Shown in pieces: positions 5,481-62,503 of a stretch of 62,503 nt of DNA (positions are counted from its first letter, which is position 1; every line of letters starts with the position of its first letter). Below the pieces are notes generated by a model. It saw only the letters and a list, made by a program, of their open reading frames with translations. It made no database searches and was not told the origin of the DNA. The translations under genes and the position numbers were made by a program. This stretch comes from Candidatus Deferrimicrobiaceae bacterium. GTDB lineage: Bacteria > Desulfobacterota > Deferrimicrobia > Deferrimicrobiales > Deferrimicrobiaceae. Location: the NCBI GenBank assembly GCA_035256765.1, contig DATEXR010000017.1:1-62503 (forward strand). Direction: 5' to 3'.

Positions 5481-5528
5481 GACGGGGAAGCGGAAGAGGG
5501 TCTCTTCGGCTTCCCCGTCCTGTTTTAT
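5481..5528 (+). terminator. rho-independent terminator between convergent tlpA-like and ferredoxin genes
   Basis: GACGGGGAAGC (5481-5491) pairs perfectly with GCTTCCCCGTC (5509-5519), with an inner GAAGAG/CTCTTC stem, followed by TGTTTTATT. Confidence 0.7.
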
Positions 5529-5743: not shown

Positions 5744-5766
5744 TCCGTTTCCTCCTGCCTGTCCGA

Positions 5767-5985: not shown

Positions 5986-6062
5986 TCCGCACCACCTCCT
6001 CTGCCAGGGTACCTGTCTAGGGATAAGATGCCGTTTCTCCGTCCGCGGTTCCTTGACTCCGG

Positions 6063-6701: not shown

Positions 6702-6739
6702 CGTGTTTCCTCCTGTCGAATCTCGCGTAGGATTCTTGG

Positions 6740-41157: not shown

Positions 41158-43809
41158 CTACTCGTAGTCCCGCGCCAGGTCCTCGAACCGCGTGTAGCGG
41201 GAGAGGAACGCGAGATCGACTACGCCCATCGGGCCGTTCCGCTGCTTCCCGATGATGATCTCGGCCTTCCCCTTTTTCTCCTCGGGAGTGTTCGCCTTGG
41301 CGTACATCTCCTCCCTGTATATGAACAGAATCAAATCTGAATCCTGCTCAATCGCCCCCGAATTGTGGGAAACGAGGCCGTCCGCCAGCCAGGAGGAAGG
41401 CCCCGGAACGGTCAGGTCGAAGACCTCCTCGGCCCCGTCGGTACGAAGATCCGTCACCCGGTCCCAGAACAAGTCGCTTGCGGCGCATCGCCGCAGCGGT
41501 TCATCGTCCAGAAGGATCGCATAGTCCATCAGCAAGGTCCGCGACGGGGAGAAATCGAGCTGCGCGCTTCCCCCGTACGCGGTTCCCCGGAGCGATGCCA
41601 TGTCCCGACGAGAGATTCCCCGCACCGCCATGGCCTCCTTCACCCGGAGAAACATTTCTTTCGGCAACGTGTCGACATTGGGATTGGATTCCACGAAGGC
41701 CAGTTCCTCCCACAGCCTGTCCGCGGGAGCGACGCGCGGCCCGAACGCCCCCACCGTCTCGAGAAAACGCTTCTGCTGATCGGCGTCGGACACATCCACG
41801 GTGTACACAGGTCGGTACTTCCCCTTCCGCACGACCCGGATCCTCGCCACGATCCCGAGCCGCAACAGCAGAGCCGCCACGTCGAAGGCAAGTCCCTCGC
41901 TCGAGGTGCTGAAGTAGACCCGCGACGACCCCTTGGACCCTCCCCGGCGACAGAAGATGCTCCCGTCCGTCGCCCAGAGATGTCTCAACAACAATCCGAC
42001 CTGCTCGTCGTCGAACCGGAAGACCTCCACGGGCAACCGCTTCTCGTGCGATCGCTGTCCGAAGATCCCCAGATCCCGCAGCCAGCGGTTCACCCCGGCC
42101 GGGCGCCACCGGTTGCCGTTCCCACCGATAAAGAGCTGGTGCCATTTCCCCCGTCCGCGAATCCGAGCTACCTTCGATCCGAACTCTCTTCGGGCCGCCC
42201 CTTCGACCGCACAGCTGTTCGGTTCCGATGCCGTCGTGTACCGAAGAGATTGCCCGATAAGATAACTTCCGTCCCCGGCGAGATGGGCCAACAGGATGAT
42301 CCGGTCTTCCGCCCACCGGACCGGTTCTTTCGATTCCGGTACACGGCGAGCCACTGCAATCCGGTCGCCCGGCTTGAGATCGGATACTCGCACCCATCCG
42401 TTGGCGCCGTACAGACGGTGATCGGCGGTGGCGCGGATCATGCGGCCGCTGGCCATGGTGACACGCACCACGGGCCTCGTTCCCACCGACCAAATACATT
42501 CACTCTTCGCCGGGACGATCCTGCCTTCCGGCGACATCGACCACACCTCGGCCTCTTTGCCGACCAAATCCCGGATGGAAGGGCGGAGTCCGTCGGTCGT
42601 CAGAACCAGGGTGTCGCCCGTCACGCATTCCCTCAGATCCGCCATCTGGGGCCGCTTGTCGGTCCGGCTCTCCACTCCCCGGTTGAGCTGGGAGATGGCG
42701 AGAACCGGGACGTTGATCTCCTTCGCCAGGGCCTTGAGCGACCGTGAGATCTCCGAGATCTCCTGGACGCGGTTGTCCTGACCCGAACGGGATGTCGCCC
42801 CTCGCATGAGCTGGAGGTAGTCGACGACGACCATCCCGATTCCCTTGTCCTTTTTCAGCCGACGCGCCTTCGCGCGAAGCTCGAGGGCGGTGAGGGTCCC
42901 GGAGTCGTCGCAGTAGATCGGCGCCTCGGAGAGCTTCCCCACGGACGCGACGATGCGGTTGATCTCGTCCTGGGCCAGGTACCCGGTCCGCAGCCGCTGG
43001 AAATCGACGCGGGCATCGGAACAGATCATGCGGAGCGCGAGCTGCTGGCGGCTCATCTCCAGGGAGAAGATCGCGACCGGCAGCCCGTGGCGCAGGGCGG
43101 CGTGGAGGGCCACGTTCAGGGAGAAGGCCGTCTTTCCCATGCCGGGACGGGCCGCGATGACCACCATGTCGGCCTTCTGGAACCCCGCGGTCAGCCGGTC
43201 GAGATCGCGGAATCCGGAGGGGACCCCGGTGATCATCTCCTTCTTCTCGTAGAGCTTCTCGATCTCCCGCATCGCCTCCTTGCCCATCTCCGCCATCGAG
43301 TAGTAGGAGGGCTTGATCTTTTCCTCGGCGATCGCGAAGATCGCCTGCTCGGTCTTGTCGAGGAAGTCGTCGACCTCCCCGACCCCCTGGAACGCGGAGT
43401 TCGTGATCTGCTGGGCGACGGCGATCATGCTCCGCAGGATCGATTTCTCCTTCACCAGGCGCGCGTAGTCGGCGACGTTCGCGGTGGTGGGAATGTTGTG
43501 GATGAGCTCGGAGAGGTAGGAAAGGCCGCCCACCTCGTTCGCCACGCCCCGGGCGTTGAGGGACTCGGCGAGCGTCAGCTGGTCGATCGCCCGGCCCCGT
43601 TCGTAGAGGTCCACCATGGTGGAGAAGAGCGTCCGGTGGGCGCCCTGGTAGAAGTCGTCCGCGCGGAGAATCTCCACCACGTCGTTCATCAGGTCGTTGT
43701 TGAGCAGGACCGAGGCGAGCACGGCCTGCTCGGCCTCGAGACTGTGGGGAGGGATCTTCAGAAGAGAAGTTTCCGACGCACCCTGCGACGTCAGCCGCGA
43801 ACCGCTCAT
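41158..43809 (-). CDS. dnaB: replicative DNA helicase DnaB, interrupted by an intein
   Basis: 883 aa. PHSLEAEQAVLASVL, Walker A ARPGMGKTAF, and the DLRE / SGAIEQDSD helicase motif split by 422 aa. Confidence 0.95.
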   Translation of the reverse strand: MSGSRLTSQGASETSLLKIPPHSLEAEQAVLASVLLNNDLMNDVVEILRADDFYQGAHRTLFSTMVDLYERGRAIDQLTLAESLNARGVANEVGGLSYLSELIHNIPTTANVADYARLVKEKSILRSMIAVAQQITNSAFQGVGEVDDFLDKTEQAIFAIAEEKIKPSYYSMAEMGKEAMREIEKLYEKKEMITGVPSGFRDLDRLTAGFQKADMVVIAARPGMGKTAFSLNVALHAALRHGLPVAIFSLEMSRQQLALRMICSDARVDFQRLRTGYLAQDEINRIVASVGKLSEAPIYCDDSGTLTALELRAKARRLKKDKGIGMVVVDYLQLMRGATSRSGQDNRVQEISEISRSLKALAKEINVPVLAISQLNRGVESRTDKRPQMADLRECVTGDTLVLTTDGLRPSIRDLVGKEAEVWSMSPEGRIVPAKSECIWSVGTRPVVRVTMASGRMIRATADHRLYGANGWVRVSDLKPGDRIAVARRVPESKEPVRWAEDRIILLAHLAGDGSYLIGQSLRYTTASEPNSCAVEGAARREFGSKVARIRGRGKWHQLFIGGNGNRWRPAGVNRWLRDLGIFGQRSHEKRLPVEVFRFDDEQVGLLLRHLWATDGSIFCRRGGSKGSSRVYFSTSSEGLAFDVAALLLRLGIVARIRVVRKGKYRPVYTVDVSDADQQKRFLETVGAFGPRVAPADRLWEELAFVESNPNVDTLPKEMFLRVKEAMAVRGISRRDMASLRGTAYGGSAQLDFSPSRTLLMDYAILLDDEPLRRCAASDLFWDRVTDLRTDGAEEVFDLTVPGPSSWLADGLVSHNSGAIEQDSDLILFIYREEMYAKANTPEEKKGKAEIIIGKQRNGPMGVVDLAFLSRYTRFEDLARDYE
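41362..42627 (-). mobile_element. DnaB intein with LAGLIDADG homing-endonuclease domain (residues 395-816)
   Basis: Begins with Cys (TGC, complement of 42625-42627; CVTGDTLVLTTDG). Ends ...LVSHN (AAT, complement of 41362-41364) followed by Ser+1. Endonuclease blocks are LLAHLAGDGSY and LLRHLWATDGSI. Removing it restores DLRE-SGAIEQDSD. Confidence 0.9.
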
Positions 43810-49238: not shown

Positions 49239-51866
49239 TTACCCCGCTTTTCGAAAGGAAAAACCGGTTTCCCCGTCCGCGTCCACCAGGACGGAATCCC
49301 CTTCGCGGAATTCCCCCTTGAGGATGTGGAGCGCGAGGGGGTCCTGGAGGTGCTTCTGGATGGCCCGGCGAAGCGGTCTTGCCCCGTAGGCGGGGTCGTA
49401 CCCGATCTCCGCAAGCCTTTCCCGGGCGGCGTCGGTCACGGTGACCGCGATCTTCCTGTCCGCAAGCCGGTCGTTCACCTCCCGGAGCATGATCCCGATG
49501 ATCCTTGCCAGTTCCTCCTTCCCGAGGGACCGGAACAGGATGATCTCGTCGAGACGGTTCAGGAACTCGGGGCGGAATTGCCGGCGGAGCTCCTCCATGA
49601 CCTTCTCCCGGACGGCCTTTTCTCCCTTGCCGGAGAGTTCCTGGATCCAGGAGGAGCCGATGTTGGAGGTAAGGATCACAACGGCGTTCCGGAAATCGAC
49701 GGTCCTTCCCTTCCCGTCGGTCAGCCGCCCGTCCTCGAGGATCTGCAGGAGGATGTGGAAGACGTCGGGGTGCGCCTTCTCCACCTCGTCGAACAGGATC
49801 ACCGTGTACGGTTTCCGTCGCACCGCCTCGGTCAGCGCACCCCCCTCCTCGTACCCCACGTACCCGGGGGGAGCCCCGATCATCCGCGCCACGGAGTGTC
49901 TCTCCATGTACTCGGACATGTCGAGGCGCACCATCGCCTGCTCGTCGTCGAAGAGAAACTGGGCCAGGGCCCGCGCCAGCTCCGTCTTCCCGACGCCGGT
50001 GGGCCCCATGAACAGGAAGGAACCGATGGGGCGGCGGGGGTCCTTCAACCCCGACCGGGCGCGGCGGACGGCGCTCGCGACGAGCCGGATGGCGTCGTCC
50101 TGGCCCACCACCCGCTCGCCGAGCCGCTCCTCCATCCGGACGAGCTTCTCGATCTCCCCCTCGACCAGCCTCGAGACCGGGATCCCGGTCCAGCGGGAGA
50201 CGACCTGGGCGATGTCCTCCTCATCCACCTCTTCCTTGAGGAGACGACCCCCGGGTTGGGTGATGTGCGGGGACACTCCTCTCCCGTGTCCCGGAGATAT
50301 ATCCGGAATGTCCCCCCTTAGCGCCTCCGCTTCTTTCTGCAGGGCGGGGATTTCGCCGTATTTCAGCTTCGAGGCCTTCCCGAGATCCCCCTCCCGCTCG
50401 GCCCGCTGCATCTCGGAGAGGGCCCGCTCGATCTTCTCCTTGACCTCGCGGCTCTTCCCGATCGCCTTCTTCTCCTCCTCCCACCGGGAGCGGTACTCCG
50501 CCGCCTTCCCCGAAAGCGCCGCCAGCTCCTCCTGGATGCGGGTGAGGCGCTGCCCCGAGGCGGCGTCGGTCTCCTTCGACAGGGCCTGCTTCTCCATCTC
50601 GAGCTGGATGATCTTCCGTTCGACCTCGTCGATCTCGGTGGGAACGGAGTCGATCTCGATCTTGAGCTTCGACGCGGCCTCGTCCACCAGGTCGATCGCC
50701 TTGTCGGGGAGAAACCGGTCGGAAATGTACCGGTTCGACAGGGTGGCGGCGGCGACAAGGGCCGAATCCTTGATTCGGACGCCGTGGTGCACCTCGTACC
50801 GGCCTTTGAGCCCCCGCAGGATCGCGATCGTGTCCTCGACCGACGGCTCCTCCACGAGAACGGGCTGGAAGCGCCTCTCCAGCGCGGCGTCCTTTTCCAC
50901 GTATTTGCGGTACTCGTCCAGGGTGGTCGCCCCGATGCAGCGCAGTTCGCCCCGGGCGAGGGCCGGTTTGAGCATGTTGGATGCGTCCATCGCCCCTTCG
51001 GCCTTGCCGATCCCCACGAGCGTGTGCAGCTCGTCGATGAAGAGGATCACCCGCCCCTCCGCGGCGGCGATCTCCGCAAGGACCGCCTTGAGCCGCTCCT
51101 CGAATTCGCCGCGGTACTTCGCGCCGGCGATCAGCGCCCCCATGTCCAGGGCGAGAACCCGCTTGTCCCGGAGACTTTCGGGGACGTCCCGGGTGACCAT
51201 CCGCTGCGCCAGTCCCTCGGCGATCGCCGTCTTCCCGACGCCCGGATCCCCGATCAGGACGGGGTTGTTCTTCGTCCGCCGGGAGAGGACCTGGATCACC
51301 CTCCGGATCTCGTCGTCCCTGCCGATGACGGGATCGAGCTTCTCCCGGCGGGCCAGTTCGGTCAGGTCCCGGCAATATCTGTCGAGCGCCTGGTACTTCG
51401 CCTCGGGGTTTTCATCCGTGATCCGCTGCGTCCCCCGGATGGAGGTAAGCGCCGACAGGAGACTTTCCCGCGTCACGCCGTGCCGACGGAGCAGATCCGC
51501 GAGGGCCCCCGGTTCGACGGTCATGGCGAGGAGGAAGTGTTCGGCGGAGAGGTACTCGTCCCGGAAGGCGTCCGCCTCGGCGAGCGCCCGGTTGAAAAGG
51601 GGTTCCATCCGCGGGGAGAGCCCGCGGCTCACGGCTCCCGACACCTTGGGGAAGGAACCGAGCAGGGAGGTCGCCCCGGACAGAAGACGCGGGACCGGCA
51701 CGCCCGCGCGGGCGAAAAGGTCCGTCGCCACCCCCCCCTCCTGGCGGAGCAGGGCGACGAAGAGATGTTCCGGCTCCACCTGGGCGTGGCCCGCCTCCGA
51801 GGCGATGCGGACGGCGTCCTGCAGAGCCTCCTGCGACTTCACGGTCAACTTGTCCAGAGATATCAT
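49239..51866 (-). CDS. clpB: ATP-dependent chaperone ClpB (carries an extra ~16 codons between the M-domain and NBD2)
   Basis: 875 aa with two AAA+ modules ([16 protein letters not shown]), a long coiled-coil M-domain and SRWTGIPV. There is no obvious Shine-Dalgarno sequence before the ATG. Confidence 0.95.
50269..50317. repeat. intragenic copy of the GGGGACACTCCT / GGAGTGTCCCC palindromic element (10/12 arm match)
   Basis: GGGGACACTCCT (50269-50280), a 24-nt spacer containing CCGGA-GATATA-TCCGG, then cGGAaTGTCCCCCC (50304-50317). Read on the coding strand it encodes [18 protein letters not shown] of ClpB. Confidence 0.75.
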
Positions 51867-51907
51867 CGGATATTCTTACAGCTCGATGAGGGGGGCTTTC
51901 TTGCAAC

Positions 51908-51955
51908 GGGGGGACACTCCTCAACATGAAACTCGAGATAGGAGTGTCCCCCCCC
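51908..51955. repeat. perfect 14-bp inverted repeat GGGGGGACACTCCT-N18-AGGAGTGTCCCCCC between degP and clpB
   Basis: Left arm 51908-51921 and right arm 51940-53 (C-run to 51955). It lies 42-89 nt upstream of the clpB ATG and about 36 nt after the degP stop. Confidence 0.9.
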
Positions 51956-51990
51956 AGCCTCCCTCTCAGGGAAGTGTTTCCCTGACGAAG

Positions 51991-53463
51991 TTACCGGTTC
52001 TTCACCGCGAGGAAGATCCGCCCCTCCCCCCGCTCCACGAGGAACAGGACGGTCTTCTCCTCCTTCACCTTCTTCATCCGTTGTTCGAACTCCTTGGAGT
52101 CCTTGACGGAGATCCGGTTGATCGCCCGGATGACGTCCCCCTCGCGGAAGCCCGCGTCTTCCGCCGGGCTGCCGGACTCGACCGACGAGACCAGCACCCC
52201 TTTCCGGTTCTCGATGTCGAGGTGCCTCGCCACCTCCGGCGTGATGTCCTGGACGGTGAGCCCCAGGCCTTTCGAGAGGTCCGGCCCACCGGCGCGCGTC
52301 TGCCCGCTTTCCGGCTCCATCTCCGCGATGGTCACGGGGATTTTTCCTTCCTTGCCGTCGCGGATCACGGTCACCTCCACATTCTTGCCGGGTTTCGTGG
52401 AGGCGACGATCTGGGGAAGATCGTGCTCGTCCGACACGTCCTTCCCGTCGAAGGAGACGATCACGTCCCCGGACCTAAGCCCCGCCTTCTCCGCCGGGCC
52501 GCCCTTGGTGACGTCCGCCACCAAGGCGCCCTTCTTCCCCGGTACGGAAAGCGTCTCCGCCATGTCCGGCGTCAGACGCTGGATGTAGACGCCGAGCCAG
52601 CCGCGGGTGACCTTCCCCTTCTCCTTGAGCTGGCCGAGGACGGACTTTGCCAGGTGGATGGGGGTCGCGAAACCGATCCCCTGGCCGCCCTGGACGATCG
52701 CCGTGTTGATCCCGACGACCTCACCCTTCATGTTGAACAGGGGACCGCCCGAGTTTCCGGGGTTGATCGACGCGTCGGTCTGGATGAAATCGTCGTACGG
52801 CCCGGAACCGATCACCCGTCCCTTGGCGCTCACGATCCCCGTCGTGACGGTGTGCCCGAGGCCGAACGGATTCCCGATGGCCACGACCCATTCCCCGATC
52901 TCCAGCTTCTCCGAATCCCCGAGGGGCACGAACGGAAGCTTCTTCCCCGTCTTGATCTTGATGAGGGCAATGTCGGTCTTCGGGTCGGTGCCGACCACCT
53001 CCGCCCGGAATTCCTCCTTGTCCAGCAACGTCACCGTGATCTCGTCGGCCTTCTCGACCACGTGGTTGTTGGTGAGGATGAACCCGTCATCGGAGACGAT
53101 GAACCCGGACCCCAGGCTCCTGCGCTTCTGCTCCCGGGGGATGTTCCCGAAGAAGTTGTGGAAGAATTCCTCGAACGGGTCCTGCTGGCCGAAGGGGGAG
53201 CGCAAGCGCGGCCGGTTGAACCGCACCACCTGCGTCGTGCTGATGTTCACGACCGCCGGCGAAACCCCTTTCGCGAGGGTGGGAATGCTCTCGATCGGAA
53301 GCACTCTGTCCGGCGCGACGGCTCCGACCTCGCTCCCCTTTTCCTTCTCGCCCGACCCCAAGAAGGCGTTGGTCAGGGGAGACAGGTTCAATCCCGCCGA
53401 CAGGACCACTCCCGCGGCCACCGCCGCGAGCAAGAGAACGACGACCTTGCCTTTTCCGATCAC
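51991..53463 (-). CDS. periplasmic serine endoprotease DegP/HtrA (2 PDZ domains)
   Basis: GTG 53461-53463 overlaps the upstream stop (GTGA). The catalytic residues lie in NNHVV, DIALIK and GNSGGPL, followed by two PDZ-like segments. Confidence 0.9.
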
Positions 53464-53930
53464 TTGATCTCCCCTCCCGGGCCCTGGCCCGCCTTCGGCG
53501 CGGAAACCCCCGCCTTGACGGCCGCCACGTACACCATCCGGAGGTGATAGAGCCCCTCCGAAAGAACACCCGACTCCTCCTCCGTGAGGTTCCCCTTGGT
53601 CTTCTCCTTGAGGATTTCGAGGAGGTCGATCGAGTCCTTGGCCGCCGGGAGGTTCACCGGGGACCTCCGGCCGTCGCCGGCCTGGACCATCCCCAGGTTG
53701 ACCATCGCCCCCATCTGGACCGACAGCACGAGATCGAGGAACGACGGCCCTCCCACGGGCGATGTTTCGCCCCCAGGGCTTTTTCCTCCATGGACACTCC
53801 CCGGGGCCGTGCGGTTCCCGGCATCGCCTTGCGGCGGCGGAGGAGGTGCGGACTCCTCTGGCCTGGTCTCCTCCTTCTCCACGCCCCGCCGGTCGACGAC
53901 CTTGAATCCCTTTTTCTCCTCTTCGGACAT
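53460..53930 (-). CDS. DUF1844-domain protein
   Basis: 156 aa with [17 protein letters not shown]...[20 protein letters not shown]...LYHLRMVYV. Confidence 0.8.
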
Positions 53931-56206
53931 CAGATGGGCACCCCCTGCGCGATGACGACCACCTCCCCGCCTTCCTCATCGACATCGACGAAGAAGCGAT
54001 CGGACTCCTTCCACTTGAGCGTGATCGGCATTTTCACCTTCTCGTCGATGTGCCGCTTGAGGAAACGGGCCCCGTACTTCACGCTGAACCCAGTCGATGA
54101 GAGGGCGGTGAGGGAGGCGTCGGAGAAGGTAAGCGTCTTGCCCGAGGCCGCCATCGACTTCCGGATCGACCCGAGGTAGATCGCCGCGATCCGCTTCACC
54201 TCGTCGAACGTGAGCGGGGAGAAGACGATGACGTCGTCGAGACGGTTGATGAATTCCGGGGTGAACCGGTTCTCGACCGCCTTGATGATGCTTTTTTTCA
54301 CCGGATCGAAATTTTCGGTGCCGGCAGCGAAGCCCAGGGGGCGGGTCAGTTTCGAAAGCTCTTCCGCGCCCAGATTGCTCGTCATGATGATGATCGCGTC
54401 CGAGAAGTACACCTTCTTCCCGCGCCCGTCGGTCAGCCACCCCTCGTCGAAGACCTGGAGGAAGAGATTGTGCACGTAGGAGTCCGCCTTCTCGATCTCG
54501 TCGAGAAGGACGACCGTATAGGGATTGTCCCGCATCTGGTTGGTCAGGATCCCCCCCCTCTCGGAGCCGACGATGCCGCGCGGCATCCCGATGAGCTTGT
54601 CCACGGCGAGGGCCCCGTCCCGGTATTCCGACATGTCCACCCGGACCATGTGGCGCTCGTCCCCGAAGAGGTATTCCGCGAGCGCCTTCGCCATCTCCGT
54701 TTTTCCGACGCCCGTGGGCCCGAGGAACAGCAGAACGCCGTCCGGACGGAAGATGTTCTCCTTCAAGGGCCCCTTGTTCATCCGAAGCGATTTCCCCACG
54801 GCCCGGATCGCCTCGTGCTGACCGACGAGCCTCCGCGAAATCTTCTCCTCGAAATCCTGGAACCGGTCGAGAACGTCGCGGCGCACGATGTCCGGGGGGG
54901 TCTTCGTCTCCTCGGAGATCACCCCGAGGACGTCCTGGCTCCTCACGGATTTCCCCTCGTCCCCGCGGATCTCGACCCGGACGCACGCCGTGTCGATCCA
55001 GTTGATGATCTTGTCGGGCAAACGCAGCGACCGCGCGTACCGGTCGGACATGGAAAGGGCGAACTCGATCGCCTCGTCCGCGATCTCCACGCCGTAATTG
55101 GTCTCCAGCCTGGCTTTCAGCCCGAACAGGATCTCCCGCGTCTCCTCTTTCGTCGGCTCTTCGATCTTTACGACCCGGAACCGGCGCGCGAGCGCCTCGT
55201 CCTCCTGGATGATCTCCTTGAACTCGGTGAAGGTGGTGGCCCCGATGATCTGGACCTCCCCCCGCGCGAGCGTCGACTTGAAGATGTTCGCGGCGTCGGA
55301 GGGGACGCCCATCGCGGAGCCGGCCCCGATCAGGGTGTGGGCCTCGTCGATGAACAGGATCAGGTTCCGGCGCTCCCGGACCTCGGCGATGACCTTCTCG
55401 ATGCGGTCCTCGAACATGCCTCGGAAGACCGTGCCCGCCACCACCGTGTTCATCTGCAGGTTGACGACCTGGTGGGCCCGCAGGCGTTCCGGGACCCTGT
55501 GCGGCTCGTATTCCAGCCGCATCGCGAGCCCCTCCACCACCGCGGTCTTCCCGACACCGGGGTCCCCGATGATCATCACCGAGTTGCTCCGGTCCTTGTG
55601 GCAGAGATATTCGATGATCCGGTCGATCTCCCGGTCCCGCCCCACGATCGGCGGGATCTTTCCCTCCCGCGCGAGAAGATTCAGGTTCACCCCGAACGTC
55701 CGCAGGTTGGCGGGCAGCTCGTACCGCTTGCGGAACTCCTCGACCTTCTCCTCCCGGCTGCGCAGCTGGGTCGAAAAGCGGGAAAGAGCGACGGCGGGGT
55801 CCACCCCGTAGTTCTTGAGGATCCGGGACGGGATCGAATGGACCTCGTGGAAGATCCCGAGGAAAAGATCCGCGGCGTCGATCTGGGACCGGCGGTTTCT
55901 CTGCGCCGTCTCCCAGGCCACCCGGAAGACCTGCTTCGTCGCCGGCGGGACCTTGAGCCCCACGCCGAGGTACTGCCGGGAGATGTTCAAGTGCTCGTTC
56001 ACCGAGTAGAGCACCGCTTCGACGGAAAGCCCCACGGACGCCATGAGCTCCCGGAACGTCGACTTCTCCTGTTCGGCGAACGCGATGAACAGGTGCTCGA
56101 GGCCGAGGTAATAGTGGTGCCGGCGCTGGGACTCCTCGATGGAGGCGTTCAGCATCCGCTGACCGGACTCGGAGAGCTTCTCCCGGTAGAACGAGATCTC
56201 CATCAT
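53930..56206 (-). CDS. ClpA/ClpC-type AAA+ unfoldase (two NBDs, ClpP-docking LGF loop)
   Basis: 758 aa with Clp_N repeats, GDPGVGKT and GPTGVGKT, and no long M-domain. RPLGFAAG aligns with the ClpA IGL / ClpC IGF loop. Confidence 0.88.
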   Translation of the reverse strand: MMEISFYREKLSESGQRMLNASIEESQRRHHYYLGLEHLFIAFAEQEKSTFRELMASVGLSVEAVLYSVNEHLNISRQYLGVGLKVPPATKQVFRVAWETAQRNRRSQIDAADLFLGIFHEVHSIPSRILKNYGVDPAVALSRFSTQLRSREEKVEEFRKRYELPANLRTFGVNLNLLAREGKIPPIVGRDREIDRIIEYLCHKDRSNSVMIIGDPGVGKTAVVEGLAMRLEYEPHRVPERLRAHQVVNLQMNTVVAGTVFRGMFEDRIEKVIAEVRERRNLILFIDEAHTLIGAGSAMGVPSDAANIFKSTLARGEVQIIGATTFTEFKEIIQEDEALARRFRVVKIEEPTKEETREILFGLKARLETNYGVEIADEAIEFALSMSDRYARSLRLPDKIINWIDTACVRVEIRGDEGKSVRSQDVLGVISEETKTPPDIVRRDVLDRFQDFEEKISRRLVGQHEAIRAVGKSLRMNKGPLKENIFRPDGVLLFLGPTGVGKTEMAKALAEYLFGDERHMVRVDMSEYRDGALAVDKLIGMPRGIVGSERGGILTNQMRDNPYTVVLLDEIEKADSYVHNLFLQVFDEGWLTDGRGKKVYFSDAIIIMTSNLGAEELSKLTRPLGFAAGTENFDPVKKSIIKAVENRFTPEFINRLDDVIVFSPLTFDEVKRIAAIYLGSIRKSMAASGKTLTFSDASLTALSSTGFSVKYGARFLKRHIDEKVKMPITLKWKESDRFFVDVDEEGGEVVVIAQGVPI

Positions 56207-56249
56207 GATAAGGTCAACGCTCCTTTCCCGCCTTCCGGCGACCCGTCCA

Positions 56250-57101
56250 TCAGGCGGCCACCCGCATCGCTCGCAGCCTTTCCACCCTCTTCTCCACGGG
56301 GGGGTGGGTACTGAACAGCGACATCATCCCCCTCCCGGACAGAGGGCTCAGAATGAACATGTGGGCAGTCGCCGGCGAGGCCTCCATGGGGACCCGCTTT
56401 GACGCCTCTGCGATCTTCTCCAGCGCGCGGGCGAGCGATTCGGGTCGCCCGCAGAACCTCGCGCCGCTCGCGTCGGCCTGGTACTCCCGCGATCGGGAGA
56501 CCGCCATCTGGACGAGCATCGCGCCGATCGGGGCGAGGATCGCCATCACGATGAGCCCCAGTCCTCCGCCTCCCCCCTCCCGGTCCCTTTCTCCGCCCCC
56601 GAAAATCGCGGCGAACTGGGCGAACCGCGCCAGCATCATGACGGCCCCCGCCAGCGTTGCGGCGATCGTCCCGATGAGGATGTCCCGGTTCTTCACGTGG
56701 CCCATCTCGTGGGCGAGCACCCCTTCCAGTTCGTCCGGGGTGAGAATCTTCATGATTCCCTGCGTCACGGCAACGGCGGCGTGCTGCGGATTTCTGCCCG
56801 TGGCGAAGGCGTTGGCCGAATCGGAGGGGAGGATGTAGACCTTCGGCATCGGAAGGGAAGCCGCCGTCGCGAGCCTGTGCACCATGGCGTGAAGCTGCGG
56901 GGCCTCGGCCTCGGAAACCTCCTGTGCGCGGTACATTCGGAGCACGATCTTGTCGGAAAACCAGTAGGCCCCTGCGTTCATGAGGACGGCAAAGCCGAAC
57001 GCCATGACCATGCCGCTTTGACCGCCCGCGTAATTCCCGATCCCGACGAATAAAACGGTGAGCAGCGCGAGAAGCACCCCGGTTTTCAATGTATTGCCCA
57101 T
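56250..57101 (-). CDS. htpX: zinc metalloprotease HtpX (M48)
   Basis: 283 aa with TM helices and the HEMGH motif. Confidence 0.93.
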
Positions 57102-57142
57102 GCGAATTCTCCCTCTCCTCTCCTGCGTATTGATTCCATTAT

Positions 57143-57158
57143 AGCCAAATCAGTTCCA
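57143..57158 (-). promoter_or_regulatory. candidate sigma54 (-24/-12) promoter upstream of htpX
   Basis: The minus strand reads cTGGAAC-TGAT-TTGGCT. GG and GC have the correct 10-nt spacing against the consensus TGGCACG-N4-TTGCW. It overlaps the dnaJ stop, about 45 nt upstream of the htpX ATG. Confidence 0.4.
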
Positions 57159-58142
57159 GCCGCCTCGTAAATTCGGATCCTCAAATGCGGCAAGCCGATC
57201 GACCAGGGAGAGAAACTCCTTCGATTGCTCTTTCGGGACGGCCACTTGCAACACCACATACTGGTCGCCCCGTGAACCGCCTCCCGGCGTCGGCACGCCC
57301 CTTCCCTTGAGCCTGAGTTTCCTGCCGCTCGACGAGCCCTCCGGAACCGAAACCGTCACAGGACCGTCGATCGTGGGCACCGATATCCTCGCCCCTTTCA
57401 CCGCCTCGGAATAGGTGACGGGCAAGTCGAGGAAGATGTCGCTTCCCTCCCTGCGGAAGTACGGGTGGGGAATCATGCGGAGACGGATGATGAGGTCCCC
57501 GCTTTTTCCCGAAGCGGTTCGTTCTCCCCCTTTCCCTCCCACGCGGATGGTGGACCCGTCCCGCGCCCCCGCGGGAATCCGGACCTTGATCCGTTCGGCA
57601 TGTTCCGTCACGCCGGCCCCGCCGCACTGCGGACACCCCCGCCGTCCCGCCCGGCCGGATCCCCGGCACCCCGCACACGCCTTGGGCCGCTGGTACTGAA
57701 GATCCCTCACGGCCCCCCTGGCCATGTCGAGGAAATCGACCGGAAGGTCCATCGTGAGGTCGACCCCGCGCCCGCCGGCCTGCGCGAACCGCCCTCCCTG
57801 CAACAGGTCTCCGAATATGTCCCCGAGGTCGAACGCCTCCCCCTGGGGATACCCCCCGGGGTCGAAACCGGAACCGCCCGCCCAATGGAACGGTCCTCCC
57901 TCCCGGAATCCCCCGGTGAAGACCCCTTTCCGTACCGCGTCGTATTCCTCCCGTTTCTTCCTGTCGGAAAGGACCCCGTTCGCCTCGTTGATCTCCTTGA
58001 AACGGCTTTCCGCCGCTTTGTCCCCTGGGTTCACATCGGGATGGTACTTCTTCGCCAGCCGTCGGAACGCCTTCCGGATCTCGTCGCCGGTGGCGTTTTC
58101 CGACACACCCAACACTTCGTAGTAGTTCTTCCTGGGATCCAT
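57150..58142 (-). CDS. dnaJ: DnaJ-class co-chaperone with a half-size zinc-finger region
   Basis: Start at [36 protein letters not shown] (J domain with HPD), then a G/F region. Only two CxxCxGxG repeats ([16 protein letters not shown]) instead of four. Confidence 0.85.
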
Positions 58143-58214
58143 CCCCGGTACAGCCGCCCTCCCCGGGAAAAATACCGGGGAGCCACGCTGCCCCCCGGAG
58201 CCCGGAAACCGCAT

Positions 58215-58670
58215 TTATTCTATAACATTCACCTTGATCTGCTTCGGCTTGGCCTGTTCCTTCTTGGGAAGTTTCACCTCGAGAACGCCGTCCTTGAACT
58301 TGGCCGTCACCTTCTCCTGATCGACGGACACCGGAAGCGAGAAGGATCGCTGGAAGTTCCCGTACGACCGCTCGATCCGGTGGTAGCTCTCCTCCTTGAC
58401 CTCCCTCTCGAACTTGCGCTCCCCGCGAAGCGACAGGATCCCGTCCTTCACCTCCACCGAGATCTGGTCCTTCTCCACGCCGGGAAGTTCCGCCTTGACC
58501 ACGACGGAATCGTTGTTCTCGTAGATGTCCACGGCCGGTGTCCACATTCCCGTCCGGATCCCCTCGTCTCTCCCTCGGGAACGGGAAAGCGCATCCTCGA
58601 AAATCTGGTTCATCCTTTCCTGGATGGTCGACAAATCGCGAAACGGGTCCAGCCAGCGTACGATCGCCAT
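58215..58670 (-). CDS. Hsp20/alpha-crystallin small heat-shock protein
   Basis: Start at MAIVRWLDPFRDL. Alpha-crystallin core AELPGVEKDQISVEVKDGILSLRGER. Confidence 0.92.
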   Translation of the reverse strand: MAIVRWLDPFRDLSTIQERMNQIFEDALSRSRGRDEGIRTGMWTPAVDIYENNDSVVVKAELPGVEKDQISVEVKDGILSLRGERKFEREVKEESYHRIERSYGNFQRSFSLPVSVDQEKVTAKFKDGVLEVKLPKKEQAKPKQIKVNVIE

Positions 58671-58740
58671 GGTTCTCCTCCTCGTACCCCCCCCGGCCCC
58701 GATCGCGGGGCCCGGGGGGCAATGATGGATGATCGTTTCG

Positions 58741-59190
58741 TTACACCGCAATCTTGATCTGCTTCGGCTTCGCCTGCTCCTTCTTCGGCAGGTCCACCTG
58801 CAGGACACCGTCCTTCATCCGGGCGGTGACCTTCTCCCCGTCAACCGAGGAGGGCAACGTGAAGGAGCGATGGAAGGTACCGTACAACCGTTCGATCCGG
58901 TGGTAGCTTTCCTCCTTTACCTCCTTCTCGATCTTTCGCTCCCCTCGCAGCGTGAGGACGCCATCCTTGACCTCGACGCCGATGGCTTCCTTGTCCATGC
59001 CGGGAAGCTCCGCCCGGACGCAGATCGCGTCCTTGGTTTCATAGATGTCCACGGCCGGCATCCAAACGCCGGTTCCCAGTGCTTCCTCGCGGCCATGACC
59101 GCTTTCCAGGAAGTTTCCGAAAAGCTGATTCATCCGGTCCTGAAGGGTTGTGATGTCCCGGAACGGATCCGTCCAACGAATAAGTGCCAT
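58741..59190 (-). CDS. Hsp20/alpha-crystallin small heat-shock protein (tandem paralogue)
   Basis: Start at MALIRWTDPFRDI. AELPGMDKEAIGVEVKDGVLTLRGER. It shares the C-terminal LPKKEQAKPKQIK with its neighbour. Confidence 0.92.
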   Translation of the reverse strand: MALIRWTDPFRDITTLQDRMNQLFGNFLESGHGREEALGTGVWMPAVDIYETKDAICVRAELPGMDKEAIGVEVKDGVLTLRGERKIEKEVKEESYHRIERLYGTFHRSFTLPSSVDGEKVTARMKDGVLQVDLPKKEQAKPKQIKIAV

Positions 59191-59255
59191 GATGTGTCCT
59201 CCTTTCCTCCGGCTCTGACACGAAGCCGGAATGTGTGCATGGGTTGTCCCGAAAT

Positions 59256-59273
59256 CGGGGATCATGATCCCCG
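59256..59273 (-). terminator. perfect palindrome immediately after the dnaK stop (attenuator or weak terminator)
   Basis: CGGGGATCATGATCCCCG is self-complementary. On the minus strand it is followed by ATTTCGGG, a poor U-tract. Confidence 0.35.
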
Positions 59274-61172
59274 CTATTTCTTCGCGGGGTCTTCGTACTC
59301 CGCGTCGACCACCTCCCCTTCCGGTCCCTTTCCCGCCGCTTCGCCTTCCGGCGCAGGCGGGGGGGGGGAAGAGGACGCCTCCTTGTACATGTGCTCGGCG
59401 AGACGGTGTGAACGCTGCATGAGTTTCTCCGCGGCCTGTTTCAGGACGTTCTCGTCCTCGGACTTCATCGATTCCTTCGCTTCGGAGACCGCGGCCTCCA
59501 CCTCGGCCGCCAGATCCGCGGGCACCTTCTCCCGGTTCTCCCGGAGCGTCTTCTCCGTGTTGTAGACGAGGGAGTCGAGGTGGTTGCGCGCCTCGATGAC
59601 GGCCTTCCGCTTCCGGTCCTCGGAAGCGTGCGCCTCGGCTTCCTTGACCATCCGGTCGATATCCTCCTTGGCGAGGCCGGTCGACGCCGTGATCGTGATC
59701 TTCTGCTCCTTGGCGGTCGCCGTGTCCTTCGCGTTGACGTGGAGGATGCCGTTGGCGTCGATGTCGAAGGTCACCTCGATCTTGGGGACGCCGCGGGGCG
59801 CGGCCGGAATCCCCTCGAGGTGGAACCTCCCCAGGGTCCGGTTGGCCGCCGCCATCCCCCGCTCCCCCTGCAGGACGTGGACCTCCACGCTCGTCTGACC
59901 ATCGGCCGCCGTCGTGAAGATCTCGCTCTTCCGGACCGGGATCGTCGTGTTCCTCTCGATGAGTTTCGTCATCACCCCCCCGAGCGTCTCGATCCCGAGC
60001 GACAGAGGGGTCACGTCGAGGAGCAGCATGTCCTTCACCTCACCGCCGAGGACGCCCGCCTGGACGGCGGCGCCCGCCGCCACCACCTCGTCGGGGTTCA
60101 CGCCCTGGTGCGGATCGCGGCGGAAGAAGCTCTTCACCATCTGGATGACCTTCGGCATCCGGGTGGAGCCGCCGACGAGCACGACCTCGTCGATCTTGTC
60201 CACGGAGATCCCGGCGTCCTGGATCGCCAGCTCGCACGGCTTGAGAGTCCGGTCGAGGATGTCCTGGGTCATCTGCTCCATCCTGCTTCGCGTGAGCTTG
60301 AGCTGGAGATGCTTGGGCCCCGTCGCGTCCGCGGTGATGAACGGGAGGCTGATTTCGGTCTCCATCACGGAGGAGAGCTCGATCTTGGCCTTCTCGGCCA
60401 CCTCCTTCAGCCTCTGAAGCGCCGTCCGGTCCTTTGACAGGTCGATCCCCTGATCCTTCCTGAATTCCGCCACGATCCACTCGATGATCCGCTGGTCGAT
60501 GTTGTCGCCCCCCAGGTGCGTGTCCCCGTTGGTCGACTTCACCTCGACGACGTTGTCTCCCACCTCGAGGATCGAGATGTCGAAGGTGCCCCCTCCAAAA
60601 TCGAAGACCGCGATCAGCTCGTTCTTCTTCTTATCGAGGCCGTACGCGAGTGCCGCGGCCGTCGGCTCGTTGATGATCCGGAGGACCTCCAGCCCCGCGA
60701 TCGCGCCCGCGTCCTTCGTCGCCTGCCGCTGCGAGTCGTTGAAGTACGCCGGCACCGTGATGACCGCCTTCTGGACCGCCTCGCCCAGGTACGTCTCCGC
60801 GGCCTTTTTCAGCTTCCCGAGCACCATGGCGGAGATCTGCTCGGGGGTGTACTCCTTCCCGCCGGCCGTCACGGTGGCCTTCTGGCTGTCCCCCTTCGTC
60901 ACCCGGTAGGGAACGAGCTTCATCTCCTCGGCGACCTCATCGTACCGGCGGCCCATGAACCGCTTGATCGAGAAAACCGTGTTCTCGGGGTTCAATACCG
61001 CCTGGCGCTTGGCCACCTGGCCGACGAGAATCTCGCCCCCCTTGCCGATGCCGACGACCGAAGGCGTGAGCCGGCTGCCCTCCTCGTTGATGATGATCTT
61101 GGGCTCCCCGCCTTCCATCACGGCCACCACGGAGTTCGTGGTGCCGAGGTCGATCCCGATGATCTTCGCCAT
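59274..61172 (-). CDS. dnaK: molecular chaperone DnaK (Hsp70)
   Basis: 632 aa with [18 protein letters not shown] and [10 protein letters not shown]. Confidence 0.98.
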
Positions 61173-61203
61173 ATTCCCCTTCTCCTTTTTCCCGGATTCT
61201 GGT

Positions 61204-61581
61204 TCAGTACCCTTTCAACACCTTCGATATGAATCTCGCAAGCAGATGGCCGTCCACCGGCTTGGTGACGTATCCCAGCACGCCCACCTCGACCGCCCAC
61301 ATCCGCTGCGCCTTGCTGTCCTCCGCGGATAACAGGAGGACCGGGACCCGCGAAGCGACGCGCCCGATCTTGGCCAGCGTGTCCAGGCCTCCGGACGAGG
61401 GCACGTCCATGTCGATGACGAGGAGGTCCGTCCCCCCGCGGACGGCACTGACCAGACCGGCGGTGCAGTCCGTGAAGAGCTCCGTCATGGCCCCCGCCTC
61501 GGAGAGTGCCCCCAGAAGCGGAGCCATCGGACCCCAGTCCTCTCCTTGTGCATCCGCGATCAGAACCACTCTTCGGGCCAC
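61204..61581 (-). CDS. single-domain response regulator (CheY-like receiver)
   Basis: 125 aa with a GTG start and GGGAGG upstream. The phospho-acceptor context is LLVIDMDVP. The Ser in LLLSAED and the Lys in YVTKP are conserved. Confidence 0.8.
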
Positions 61582-61608
61582 TTTTTCCTCCCTGCACCCT
61601 ACCTGATG

Positions 61609-61625
61609 TCCAACATCCGTGCCAA
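61609..61625 (-). promoter_or_regulatory. candidate sigma54 (-24/-12) promoter upstream of the receiver-dnaK operon
   Basis: The minus strand reads TTGGCACG-GATG-TTGGA. The -24 element is perfect, but the -12 reads TTGG instead of TTGC. It lies about 28 nt upstream of the GTG at 61581. Confidence 0.5.
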
Positions 61626-61783
61626 AGGGAGCCCCCTTGTAAGATCAGCATAACTTTCTGTTTTTAATCAGTTATTATTGGCCAATACCGGACAGGCGAT
61701 CAACCGAAGAAAAAATCGCGCCAAAATGGCGTACCTGCGCCGCCCCTGGGCTGCGCCATTTTGACGTGATCAACTTCCTGTGC

Positions 61784-61876
61784 GGGGACACTCCGGGGAC
61801 ACTCCTGATTCTATCGACGAGAAATAAAGGAGTGTCCCCACCCAGTGTTAGGAATGTCCCCCTTGGGAGTGTCCCC
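61784..61876. repeat. cluster of five GGGGACACTCC(T) / (A)GGAGTGTCCCC half-sites
   Basis: Forward copies at 61784-61794 and 61795-61806 (tandem, 11-bp register). Reverse copies at 61828-61839 (perfect), 61850-61862 (GGAATGTCCCCC) and 61865-61876. Confidence 0.9.
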
Positions 61877-61985
61877 GGGGACCGCAACCGGGGCCCCTGG
61901 CTCGCGGAGGGGTCCCCTCGGCTACGCTCGCGACCTTGCGCCCGCTCGCTGCCGGTTCCGCTCGACGCGATTTCTTCCCTTCGGC

Positions 61986-62034
61986 GGGACACTCCTCCAA
62001 CCGTACTACCGACAACCTCCAGGAGTGTCCCCCC
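61986..62034. repeat. inverted repeat GGGACACTCCT-N24-AGGAGTGTCCCCCC
   Basis: Left arm 61986-61996 and right arm 62021-62034, with perfect 11-bp complementarity. Confidence 0.9.
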
Positions 62035-62332
62035 GCCTCGTCGACCCCCCCGCATCGCCTCGGGTCCCCGGCCGACGAACAAGCCACGCGGCGCCTTCCC
62101 GGTGCGTACCCTACACCGGGGCGCCATCGGCGGAGCAGCCGAAGGACGGGGGGTCCGAACGGAGCTTTCCGGGAGGAAGGTCAAGCGCAGACTTGCGGGT
62201 TCATCGCAAGTCGAGCGACGAAGTGAGCGACCCCCCTCCGAGGATGCGGAGCGATAGCCGCCCGCGAGCCCCGGGCACCGGGAGGCACGTATAGAACCGT
62301 TGCCATATTTTGGATATGAACCACGAAGCTTC

Positions 62333-62503
62333 CTAGGAGATCCCGTACTCCCTGACTTTTCGCTGGAGGGTTCGCAGCCCGATCCCGAGCCTCTTCGCCG
62401 CCTGCGTCTTGTTCCCGTCCGTCTTCAGCAGGGCGGCCACGATGGCCTCGCGCTCGATCTCCTCGAGCGTTCGGGCCGAAGGAAGGGGAATCGGTCCGGA
62501 CGG
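62333..62503 (-). CDS. sigma54-dependent transcriptional activator, C-terminal Fis-type HTH (5' part outside the window)
   Basis: Not in the ORF track. My minus-strand translation ends ...PSARTLEEIEREAIVAALLKTDGNKTQAAKRLGIGLRTLQRKVREYGIS-TAG (stop 62333-62335), the typical C-terminus of NtrC-family enhancer-binding proteins. Confidence 0.8.
   Translation of the reverse strand, partial: PSGPIPLPSARTLEEIEREAIVAALLKTDGNKTQAAKRLGIGLRTLQRKVREYGIS

Follow-up and report, generated by a model that had tools for sequence, protein, structure and literature searches.

The window (the whole 62.5-kb stretch of DNA that was analysed) stems from an uncultured iron-reducing bacterium of the candidate phylum Deferrimicrobiota. 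Open reading frames and Pfam matches place ten proteostasis genes in a row on its minus strand, from a stand-alone receiver to ClpB (Table 1), thus bearing out the chaperone/protease block described in the initial annotation together with its gene overlaps, TGATG between clpC and DUF1844 and GTGA between DUF1844 and degP. The receiver gene is the first gene after a sigma54-type promoter, and its orthologue family retains the phospho-acceptor Asp and the conserved Lys. The DnaJ-type protein, 327 to 339 aa long in relatives, possesses a reduced zinc finger with two CxxCxG motifs; an upstream ATG at 58214 represents an alternative, less likely dnaJ start. The ClpA/C-type unfoldase harbors an LGF ClpP-docking loop at residues 624 to 626, the DegP/HtrA protease combines two PDZ domains with an N-terminal hydrophobic segment, and in the window sequence no Shine-Dalgarno sequence was found ahead of the clpB ATG.

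Table 1. Genes and sequence features of the proteostasis locus (window coordinates)
Feature	Position	Strand	Remarks
NtrC-family sigma54 activator, 3' end	62333-62503	-	Last 56 codons and stop; HTH_8 DNA-binding region
550-nt insertion	61783-62332		At least three units of the dispersed repeat GGGACACTCC...GGAGTGTCCC
Candidate activator site 1, CGTCAAAATGGCG	61754-61766	-	13-bp palindrome; start 142 nt 5' of the TGGCAC T
Candidate activator site 2, CGCCATTTTGGCG	61719-61731	-	13-bp palindrome; start 107 nt 5' of the TGGCAC T
IHF-like site, AAACAGAAAGTTA	61651-61663	-	WATCAR-N4-TTR type, A+T-rich spacer; between sites and promoter
Sigma54-type promoter, TGGCACGGATGTTGGA	61609-61624	-	One mismatch to TGGCAC-N5-TTGCW
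Stand-alone receiver	61204-61581	-	125 aa; GTG start, GGAGG Shine-Dalgarno; Pfam Response_reg
DnaK	59274-61172	-	Pfam HSP70, E = 5e-257
Hsp20, first copy	58741-59190	-	Pfam HSP20; 149 aa by gene calls on identical contigs
Hsp20, second copy (hsp20b)	58215-58670	-	Pfam HSP20; 151 aa by gene calls
G+C-rich hairpin, then TATTTTT	58175-58198	-	Terminator scan; between hsp20b and the likely dnaJ start
DnaJ-type co-chaperone	57150-58142	-	Pfam and sequence: J domain, reduced zinc finger, DnaJ_C
Invariant TATAATGGAATCAATAC	57127-57143	-	Just 3' of the dnaJ stop, ahead of htpX
HtpX membrane protease	56250-57101	-	Pfam Peptidase_M48
ClpA/C-type double-ring AAA+ unfoldase	53930-56206	-	Pfam; NCBIfam matches below cut-off
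DUF1844 protein	53460-53930	-	Pfam
DegP/HtrA protease	51991-53463	-	Pfam; 490 aa by gene calls
14-bp perfect inverted repeat, GGGGGGACACTCCT-N18-AGGAGTGTCCCCCC	51908-51953		degP-clpB spacer; copy of the dispersed repeat
ClpB disaggregase	49239-51866	-	Pfam and sequence

The end of an NtrC-family activator gene, which had been claimed directly upstream on the same strand, was confirmed by the HTH_8 region within its final 56 codons; its stop codon occupies positions 62333 to 62335, the rest of this gene and the kinase gene being located outside the window. This C-terminus is identical in 54 of 56 residues to that of the complete 461-aa activator of locus L131, which comprises REC, AAA+ (with Walker A and GAFTGA) and HTH_8 domains. 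The kinase of complete relatives is a 255-aa protein composed only of DHp (dimerisation/His-phosphotransfer) and CA (catalytic) domains, without a membrane or periplasmic part and without a PAS sensor. The best named NCBIfam matches are ZraS and AtoS for the kinase core and the AtoC, NtrC and ZraR families for the activator, all with scores far below the equivalog cut-offs. A conserved lipoprotein gene is located ahead of the kinase gene.

Across a comparison set of 40 related loci, with receiver identities of 46 to 97%, the receiver gene is nearly always preceded directly by genes for a small kinase and the activator, and the order kinase-activator-receiver-DnaK-Hsp20-DnaJ-HtpX-ClpC-DUF1844-DegP-ClpB holds, down to 50% receiver identity, on all related contigs of sufficient length. 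Where insertions occur 3' of the activator gene (one gene in L129, 4 kb in L155), the candidate activator sites and the promoter remain with the receiver gene. The window harbors a second sensor kinase/activator pair at positions 37717 to 41156, indicating that the organism uses sigma54.

A 550-nt repeat insertion parts the activator gene from its candidate sites in the window, being positioned between the latter and the activator stop codon. L131, whose receiver is 97% identical, lacks this insertion, its TAG stop being followed directly by CACAGGAA..., and L001, L002, L004 and L005 carry other sequence at this position; stretches of the insertion have matches in 42 other loci. The palindromic arrays to which the initial annotation assigned a regulatory role at the block entry points do exist, with nine exact copies of GGGACACTCC in the window, all between 49 and 62.5 kb, but the role itself was not upheld, since the repeats vary among near-identical strains and belong to a dispersed family. 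It is extremely improbable that they constitute activator sites or a heat-shock operator common to the dnaK and clpB entry points, even though every exact copy falls within the block, one pair preceding clpB and several preceding the receiver gene, and the copy before clpB recurs in L127 and L128 (with its spacer reversed). The repeats upstream of the receiver gene are absent from L131 and from L127 to L130 and are replaced in L001, L002, L004 and L005, the copy before clpB is missing from the near-identical L003 as well as from L129 and L130, the inter-arm spacing varies from 18 to 60 nt, and repeat units occur on dozens of unrelated contigs, where heat-shock genes are almost never nearby. 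The 550-nt insertion is outside the circuit considered below.

The first of two sigma54-like promoters proposed previously, that before the receiver gene, withstood comparison, as it deviates from the consensus by one mismatch and is conserved amid diverged flanks. TGGCACGGATGTTGGA contains GG at -25/-24 and G at -13, with G replacing C at -12, and transcription is predicted to start near position 61598, approximately 12 nt downstream of 61610. Comparison of 34 distinct upstream sequences yields TGGCACGG-N3-TTG(T/G)T as the consensus, 38 to 47 nt before the start codon; all 34 possess GG and the -13 G, whereas 33 lack the consensus C at -12, and the columns beside the motif reach a majority frequency of only 0.3 to 0.5, the flanks having almost fully diverged. 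Because the alignment was anchored by a loose regular expression, part of this motif conservation arises by construction, from which the free positions and the single occurrence of TGGCA[CT]G-N4-TTG per 20-kb related locus, and in the 62.5-kb window, are exempt. The TTGT form is functional as a sigma54 promoter in E. coli pspA, TGGCACGCAAATTGTA (PMC2831329).

The two candidate activator sites lie 35 bp apart and are found at matching positions in most related loci, and the combination of promoter and sites was seen only upstream of the receiver gene in all loci compared. The IHF-like site forms conserved columns amid diverged sequence, with a match at a like offset (-39 to -41) in 17 of 35 loci. 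The palindrome co-varies with the recognition helix of the activator: the helix GIGLRTL(Q/H)RK pairs with TGYCR-N3-YGGCR sites and GIGIATLHRK with ATCAAAATGAT / CTCTCAWTTTGAT sites, the -24/-12 motif being identical across both groups. The terminator scan additionally picked up site 2 as a small hairpin with a T-run behind it.

Both the missing C at -12 and the resemblance of the half-site TGGCA of the upstream palindrome to the -24 element could suggest that TGGCACGG-N3-TTG is instead the operator of another protein, the activator regulating something else and its adjacency being historical. This is, however, very unlikely: the motif is unchanged in the clade whose upstream sites have switched to ATCA...TGAT, which implies that it is read by a different, invariant factor, it lacks an adjoining palindromic partner, its spacing relative to the start codon and the tandem sites fits sigma54 promoters, and pspA demonstrates that TTGT is functional.

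The second proposed promoter, at positions 57143 to 57158, was rejected: it has two mismatches, the TGGAAC within it encodes the Trp-Asn with which dnaJ ends ahead of its stop codon, and conservation is lacking in the -12 part, which reads TGGC, TGGA, TGGT, TGTC, CGTT or AAGC in relatives. Sigma54-like matches with up to two mismatches number seven in the window, compared to ten expected by chance. Sharing one base (57143) with this discarded site is the invariant TATAATGGAATCAATAC, whose TATAAT box is perfect in all 14 loci examined, including L129, in which the dnaJ frame continues through TGGAAC and the box; ahead of htpX, it may serve as a sigma70-type -10 box or as a processing site. The hairpin following hsp20b is a probable attenuator or partial terminator, with equivalent strong hairpins of differing sequence in L127, L128 and L130; a hairpin is also present after dnaK, and a hairpin or repeat precedes clpB.

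The uniform strand, the short or overlapping spacers and the clade-wide gene order would be compatible with transcription of all ten genes as one 12-kb sigma54-dependent unit with an internal sigma54 promoter before htpX, as envisaged initially. Such an arrangement is nevertheless unlikely, given the coding nature and variable -12 part of the internal site, the presence of TGGCA[CT]G-N4-TTG only once per locus and the hairpins or repeats before clpB; the conserved internal hairpins and the TATAAT box likewise argue against a single transcript. Owing to the hairpins after dnaK and hsp20b and to this box, the distal genes may be largely sigma54 independent.

Neither CIRCE or HAIR elements nor a conserved sigma32-type promoter were found at the locus, and a search of the window's annotated ORFs yielded no hrcA, grpE or rpoH, in agreement with the initial annotation. 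The conserved sigma54-type promoter and the sites of the adjoining activator suggest that these genes are apparently under the control of a phosphorylation relay rather than of the usual heat-shock regulators. Synteny, the conserved motif, the tandem palindromes and the helix co-variation thus strongly favor the previously suggested wiring of activator and receiver to the chaperone block, and we consider it probable that the cluster is headed by one sigma54-dependent promoter which is switched on by the neighboring NtrC-family activator.

In the proposed circuit, the kinase gene would be cotranscribed with the activator gene, as in complete relatives, and the activator, presumably phosphorylated by this kinase, would bind the palindromes at 61754 to 61766 and 61719 to 61731. 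Bending of the DNA at the A+T-rich IHF-like segment (61651 to 61663) would then allow the AAA+ ring of the activator to open the closed sigma54 holoenzyme complex, with transcription predicted to proceed in vivo into the receiver gene, dnaK and both hsp20 genes and a share of it reading past the hairpin at 58175 to 58198 into dnaJ and further. For htpX-clpC-DUF1844-degP an extra promoter, with the TATAAT box at 57138 to 57143, is probable, and a separate one is possible for clpB. As the earliest product, the stand-alone receiver would most likely be a competitor for the phosphoryl groups of the kinase and in this way switch the response off.

In circuit layout, this scheme is likened to the HsfB/HsfA phosphorelay of Myxococcus xanthus, which is reported to activate the heat-shock gene lonD (Ueki and Inouye 2002, via PMC9109919), a histidine kinase phosphorylating an NtrC-like sigma54 activator that acts directly on a heat-shock or proteostasis gene. 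HsfB is a hybrid kinase, whereas a bare 255-aa DHp and CA core is present here; the operon under control opens here with the gene of a separate receiver; the target is a core dnaK/hsp20 and protease cluster adjoining its regulators rather than lonD; and the phylum differs. Two tandem dimer sites approximately 100 to 140 bp upstream of a -24/-12 promoter and an activator of REC-AAA+(GAFTGA)-Fis-type HTH layout recall NtrB/NtrC-glnAp2, but the site is TGYCR-N3-YGGCR, the kinase lacks a PAS sensor and the function is proteostasis, not nitrogen. E. coli PspF/pspA shares the unusual promoter form TGGCACG-N4-TTGT, an IHF-assisted enhancer and a stress-protective operon; PspF, however, lacks a receiver domain and is regulated through binding of PspA instead of by a kinase, and the psp genes protect the membrane and include no chaperones, unlike this cluster. 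Classical sigma32, HrcA/CIRCE or HspR/HAIR control has the targets dnaK, dnaJ, hsp20 and clpB in common with the present locus, but the corresponding CIRCE, HAIR and sigma32-type elements were not found here. Sigma54-dependent grpE/groES are predicted or known in Bacteroidota and Planctomycetota (PMC12316311), the Bacteroidota cases indicating that sigma54 can drive chaperone genes; in comparison with those predictions, a dedicated kinase/activator pair and candidate sites were identified here beside the operon.

The inducing signal may be heat or proteotoxic stress, DnaK, ClpB and Hsp20 being classical heat/aggregation responders and the kinase being devoid of membrane and periplasmic parts. 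An appreciable, though less than even, likelihood attaches to a genuine circuit whose signal is growth phase or a stress of the envelope, redox or metal type, in the manner of ZraSR or PspF, which would accord with the mixture of cytosolic chaperones and the envelope proteases HtpX and DegP, the proximity of the kinase core to ZraS and AtoS and the lipoprotein gene before the kinase gene. ZraS/ZraR similarly couples a two-component system and sigma54 to a chaperone gene (zraP, whose product is periplasmic) and provides best named matches for the kinase and activator, at the sub-equivalog scores given above; ZraS is, however, a membrane sensor whose periplasmic domain has no counterpart here, and the regulon content differs.

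The initial annotation had described ten consecutive minus-strand chaperone and protease genes, a gene content which ORF listing and Pfam assignment bore out (see table). The reported gene overlaps, of the TGATG and GTGA type, are real, as is the end of an NtrC-type activator gene just upstream, of which the window retains 171 bases encoding the last 56 residues. All cluster genes are tightly spaced on one strand. The DnaJ-type protein, whose J domain begins at residue 30 of the longer ORF and whose relatives comprise 327 to 339 aa, harbors only two CxxCxG motifs, and the ClpA/C-type unfoldase carries an LGF ClpP-docking loop at residues 624 to 626.

Coordinates of genes and sequence elements in the window
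Feature	Position	Strand	Basis or sequence
Activator gene, 3' end	62503-62333	-	...KTQAAKRLGIGLRTLQRKVREYGIS, then stop
550-nt insertion with repeat copies	61783-62332		
Palindrome 1	61766-61754		CGTCAAAATGGCG
Palindrome 2	61731-61719		CGCCATTTTGGCG
Predicted sigma54-type promoter	61609-61624		TGGCACGGATGTTGGA
Stand-alone receiver	61204-61581	-	ORF + Pfam
DnaK	59274-61172	-	ORF + Pfam
Hairpins after dnaK	59256-59273		
dnaK-hsp20 spacer	59195-59273		
Hsp20, two copies	58741-59190; 58215-58670	-	ORF + Pfam
Hairpin and T-run after hsp20b	58175-58198		
DnaJ-type protein	57150-58142	-	ORF + Pfam
Rejected sigma54-like site	57143-57158		TGGAAC
Element with TATAAT box	57143-57127		TATAATGGAATCAATAC
HtpX	56250-57101	-	ORF + Pfam
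ClpA/C-type unfoldase	53930-56206	-	ORF + Pfam
DUF1844	53460-53930	-	ORF + Pfam
DegP	51991-53463	-	ORF + Pfam
Repeat copy before clpB	51908-51953		Perfect 14-bp inverted repeat
clpB start region	51866-51885		GTAAGAATATCCGATG
Further repeat copy	50270-50314		
ClpB	49239-51866	-	ORF + Pfam
DnaB replicative helicase	41158-43809	-	Pfam Intein_splicing, LAGLIDADG_3
Second two-component pair	37717-41156	+	

Inspection of the sequence upstream of position 62503 had been suggested as a check on the proposed circuit. Because all contigs with an identical DnaK end in the repeat region, this side of the locus was examined in L131, a close relative whose receiver is 97% identical, and in other relatives, which encode both a kinase and a complete activator. 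Across six long contexts (L127 to L130, L179, and L180) and 36 metagenome loci, the order small kinase, NtrC-type activator, receiver, DnaK, Hsp20, DnaJ, HtpX, ClpC-like protein, DUF1844, DegP, and ClpB was found wherever the contig was long enough. The 461-aa activator of L131 displays all three NtrC-family features, namely, a receiver domain, an AAA+ domain with Walker A and GAFTGA (EKGAFTGA) motifs, and a C-terminal Fis-type helix-turn-helix (HTH_8); the window's fragment corresponds to the helix-turn-helix part only and is identical to this orthologue at 54 of 56 residues. The best 120 activator homologues listed (66 to 96% identity) all derive from MAGs or metagenomes, and the receiver family is made up of 125-aa proteins of uncultured Deferrimicrobiaceae/"Deltaproteobacteria" MAGs.

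The kinase, a protein of 255 aa encoded outside the window, consists of HisKA and HATPase_c domains with the H-box at residue 22, and its gene overlaps the start of the activator gene in L131 and in every long relative, an arrangement indicative of two-component pairing. Its alignments to ZraS/AtoS-type kinases are confined to their catalytic cores, and the kinase accordingly lacks a sensor domain. NCBIfam provided no name above curated cut-offs for the kinase, activator, or receiver. The neighborhood upstream of the kinase gene is also conserved beyond the window end (L127, L128, L130, L179, and L180; e.g., L127 positions 703 to 7202), comprising metallophosphoesterase-archease-RtcB-methyltransferase genes, which represent an RNA-repair set, and a divergent PBP1A gene. 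In E. coli, this RNA-repair set is sigma54 controlled. Directly before the kinase gene lies a gene for an uncharacterized lipoprotein with an LxGC lipobox and no Pfam match.

A match to the sigma54 pattern does not in itself constitute evidence of a promoter, since a scan of the window for TGGCAC-N5-TTGCW with up to two mismatches returned 7 sites against 10 expected. Of the two sigma54-like promoters initially reported, the one ahead of the receiver gene is conserved across relatives. It deviates from the pattern by a single mismatch, at the -12 C, with TGGCAC at 61619 to 61624, and the consensus of 34 distinct upstream sequences is ccntTGGCACGGaanTTGtT, positioned 38 to 47 nt ahead of the start codon, with a core of TGGCACGG-N3-TTG. 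The GG at -25/-24 is present in 34/34 distinct orthologous sequences and the following CAC in 32 to 33, while the -13 G and TT are invariant or nearly so at the right spacing; columns beside the motif reach majority frequencies of only 0.3 to 0.5. At -12, where the sigma54 consensus has C, the base is T (22 sequences), G (8), A (3), or C (1), and the functional E. coli pspA promoter, TGGCACGCAAATTGTA, has the same TTGT form (PMC2831329). The motif TGGCA[CT]G-N4-TTG has exactly one occurrence in each 20-kb locus, and the whole window likewise contains a single one. Judging from this conservation, the cluster is probably headed by one sigma54-type promoter. The second proposed promoter, with two mismatches, is unsupported: its TGGAAC represents Trp-Asn codons before the dnaJ stop, its -12 part varies freely, and the dnaJ reading frame of L129 continues through both TGGAAC and the TATAAT box.

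Two 13-bp palindromes begin 142 and 107 nt upstream of the T of TGGCAC. Of the 34 distinct upstream sequences, 15 match both palindromes at those offsets and 23 match one or more; in most of the rest, variants of the sites occupy the same positions. An A+T-rich segment contains an IHF-like match (WATCAR-N4-TTR) at the same offset in 17/35 loci (-39 in the window). This layout agrees with that of sigma54-dependent promoters, whose activator sites lie roughly 80 to 150 bp upstream, often with an IHF site in between. Among all compared loci, with some 0.8 Mb of unrelated contigs among them, promoter and sites were encountered in combination only upstream of the receiver gene, beside which they stay even where extra DNA separates the activator and receiver genes (L129; L155, a related locus with a 4-kb insertion; and the 550-nt insertion of the window). 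Activators with the recognition helix GIGLRTL(Q/H)RK pair with TGYCR-N3-YGGCR sites, and those of the GIGIATLHRK clade pair with ATCAAAATGAT / CTCTCAWTTTGAT sites. It is this co-variation of site and recognition helix that ties the palindromes to the neighboring activator, and the fact that the -24/-12 motif is unchanged in the GIGIATLHRK clade indicates that this motif is read by a different, invariant factor. Binding of the upstream palindromes by the neighboring activator is, by such sequence comparison, supported indirectly. Synteny, promoter conservation, and helix/site co-variation support the core of the initial interpretation, a sigma54 activator and receiver circuit acting on the chaperone block, which erred as to the second promoter and the palindromic arrays.

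These arrays, formerly regarded as entry-point sites and distinct from the two 13-bp palindromes, belong to a mobile repeat which is present or absent between close strains. The window contains nine exact copies of GGGACACTCC, all within the chaperone block, and the repeat family is represented at the window positions given in the table and at further loci (L007 to L126); a typical unit reads GGGGGACACTCC-TGGTTTTCTCGNCGANAAAACCA-GGAGTGTCCCCC. Three alleles exist upstream of the receiver gene among L131 and the contigs with identical DnaK: L003 has the window's array; upstream of about 61775, the sequence of L001, L002, L004, and L005 is unrelated; and in L131, the activator stop codon, TAG, directly adjoins CACAGGAA... 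It follows that the window carries a 550-nt insertion, pieces of which have matches in 42 other loci, for the most part Deferrimicrobiaceae-type MAG contigs. The inverted repeat before clpB is absent from the near-identical L003 as well as from L129 and L130 and is present in L127 and L128, where the 20-nt spacer of this degP-clpB copy is oriented oppositely to that of the window. Even strains sharing at least 97% identity differ in whether they carry the repeat, at which assemblies are prone to break.

Searching genome-wide for the inverted core gave at least 120 loci; individual MAGs contained several copies, and hardly any lay beside heat-shock genes. A heat-shock operator function was rejected, as tblastn of the ten proteins against 120 loci gave only five weak, unrelated matches. 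Being multi-copy, intergenic, palindromic, and variable between close strains, the repeat has the properties of REP/MITE-like elements. When ORFs located up to 1.5 kb from 120 repeat-bearing loci were clustered, no transposase or common neighbor emerged, the high-GC ORF clusters near the repeat being spurious ORFs across the repeat itself, and a full-text literature search with the 10-mer GGGACACTCC and its complement retrieved eukaryotic primers only. Several other phyla likewise have multi-copy palindromes containing the 10-mer core; a conserved recognition site was rejected as unproven, and the occurrence may reflect ascertainment. It is not read as homology, because the core itself defined the scan and conservation does not extend to the flanking bases. 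Conspicuous palindromes beside operons can, therefore, be mobile repeats and not operators.

Bacterial heat-shock control is, in its textbook form, a function of sigma32, HrcA, HspR, or CtsR. The initial observation that the window shows no grpE, hrcA, rpoH, or CIRCE holds, the genes being absent among the annotated ORFs, as is groEL. Scanning for CIRCE (TTAGCACTC-N9-GAGTGCTAA) gave zero matches at up to three mismatches; the HAIR motif (CTTGAGT-N7-ACTCAAG) gave one, at chance level and inside dnaJ; and no sigma32-type promoter (CTTGAAA-N12-17-CCCCATNT) was conserved across 35 upstream regions. In Rfam scans, run at gathering thresholds on the window and at permissive thresholds on positions 61500 to 62400, only a tRNA and chance miRNA matches appeared.

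Within the cluster, the TATAAT box, the hairpins after dnaK and hsp20b, and the hairpins or repeats preceding clpB suggest that several nested transcription units are probably arranged under one sigma54-controlled head promoter. The element TATAATGGAATCAATAC, which directly follows the dnaJ stop, is invariant in 14/14 loci and has no recognizable -35 element; ahead of htpX, it may mark a site of RNA processing or, as a sigma70-type -10 box, an internal promoter. Relatives possess hairpins of different sequence equivalent to the G+C-rich hairpin and T-run after hsp20b. In the dnaK-hsp20 spacer and its equivalents in L127 to L130, a hairpin (CCGGC...GCCGG) is located just before the hsp20 Shine-Dalgarno sequence, its structure being conserved with compensatory changes, and it may serve as a 5' stabilizer, an attenuator, or an RNA thermometer. 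The spacer preceding clpB in the window comprises 124 nt with a hairpin. A Shine-Dalgarno sequence is missing ahead of clpB in the window, L127, and L128, and one of the GGAGG type is present in L003, L129, and L130; where the repeat occurs, clpB may have a leaderless mRNA.

The equivalents of Asp57, the phospho-acceptor, and Lys109 are invariant in the receiver family and that of Asp13 is at least 90% conserved; the Asp12 equivalent is Ala, Ser, or Thr, and that of Thr87 varies among S, A, T, and G. We infer that this protein, which shares 26% identity with the receiver domain of the activator, acts as a competing phosphoryl acceptor, i.e., a feedback sink.

Sigma54/activator control of single heat-shock or chaperone genes is exemplified by E. 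coli psp and by ZraSR-zraP. Such control of a heat-shock gene is described for M. xanthus HsfBA-lonD (as cited in PMC9109919), and sigma54 control is known or predicted for grpE/groES in Bacteroidota (PMC12316311). The present system differs from all four in that its target is a core dnaK/hsp20/clp/protease cluster, its kinase is without a sensor domain, the operon opens with the receiver gene, and the lineage is an uncultured phylum whose sole genome paper is silent on sigma factors, chaperones, and stress regulation. It is possible, albeit rather doubtful, that across Deferrimicrobiota (MBNT15) a phosphorelay to sigma54 governs core cytosolic and envelope proteostasis instead of sigma32/HrcA, in which case the sensorless kinase would itself be the thermometer, or be held off by free DnaK/DnaJ until these are titrated, and the first-gene receiver would be a phosphate sink timing shut-off. 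Activator-dependent sigma54 control of the central dnaK/hsp20/clp set would in itself represent a distinct heat-shock solution across a whole candidate phylum without a cultured member. The dedicated kinase, activator, predicted binding sites, and built-in receiver are all identifiable from sequence, and the compact module, in which kinase, activator, and receiver comprise 255, 461, and 125 aa and the DNA about 200 bp, would allow one to ask how a sensorless kinase perceives proteotoxic stress.

Downstream of clpB, the window encodes housekeeping functions, namely, ispE, spoVG, a tRNA, prs, L25, pth, S6, ssb, S18, L9, and an intein-containing dnaB. The intein of the 883-aa DnaB harbors a LAGLIDADG homing-endonuclease domain, and in the second two-component pair, a 668-aa histidine kinase with a PAS domain precedes an NtrC-type sigma54 activator of 478 aa.
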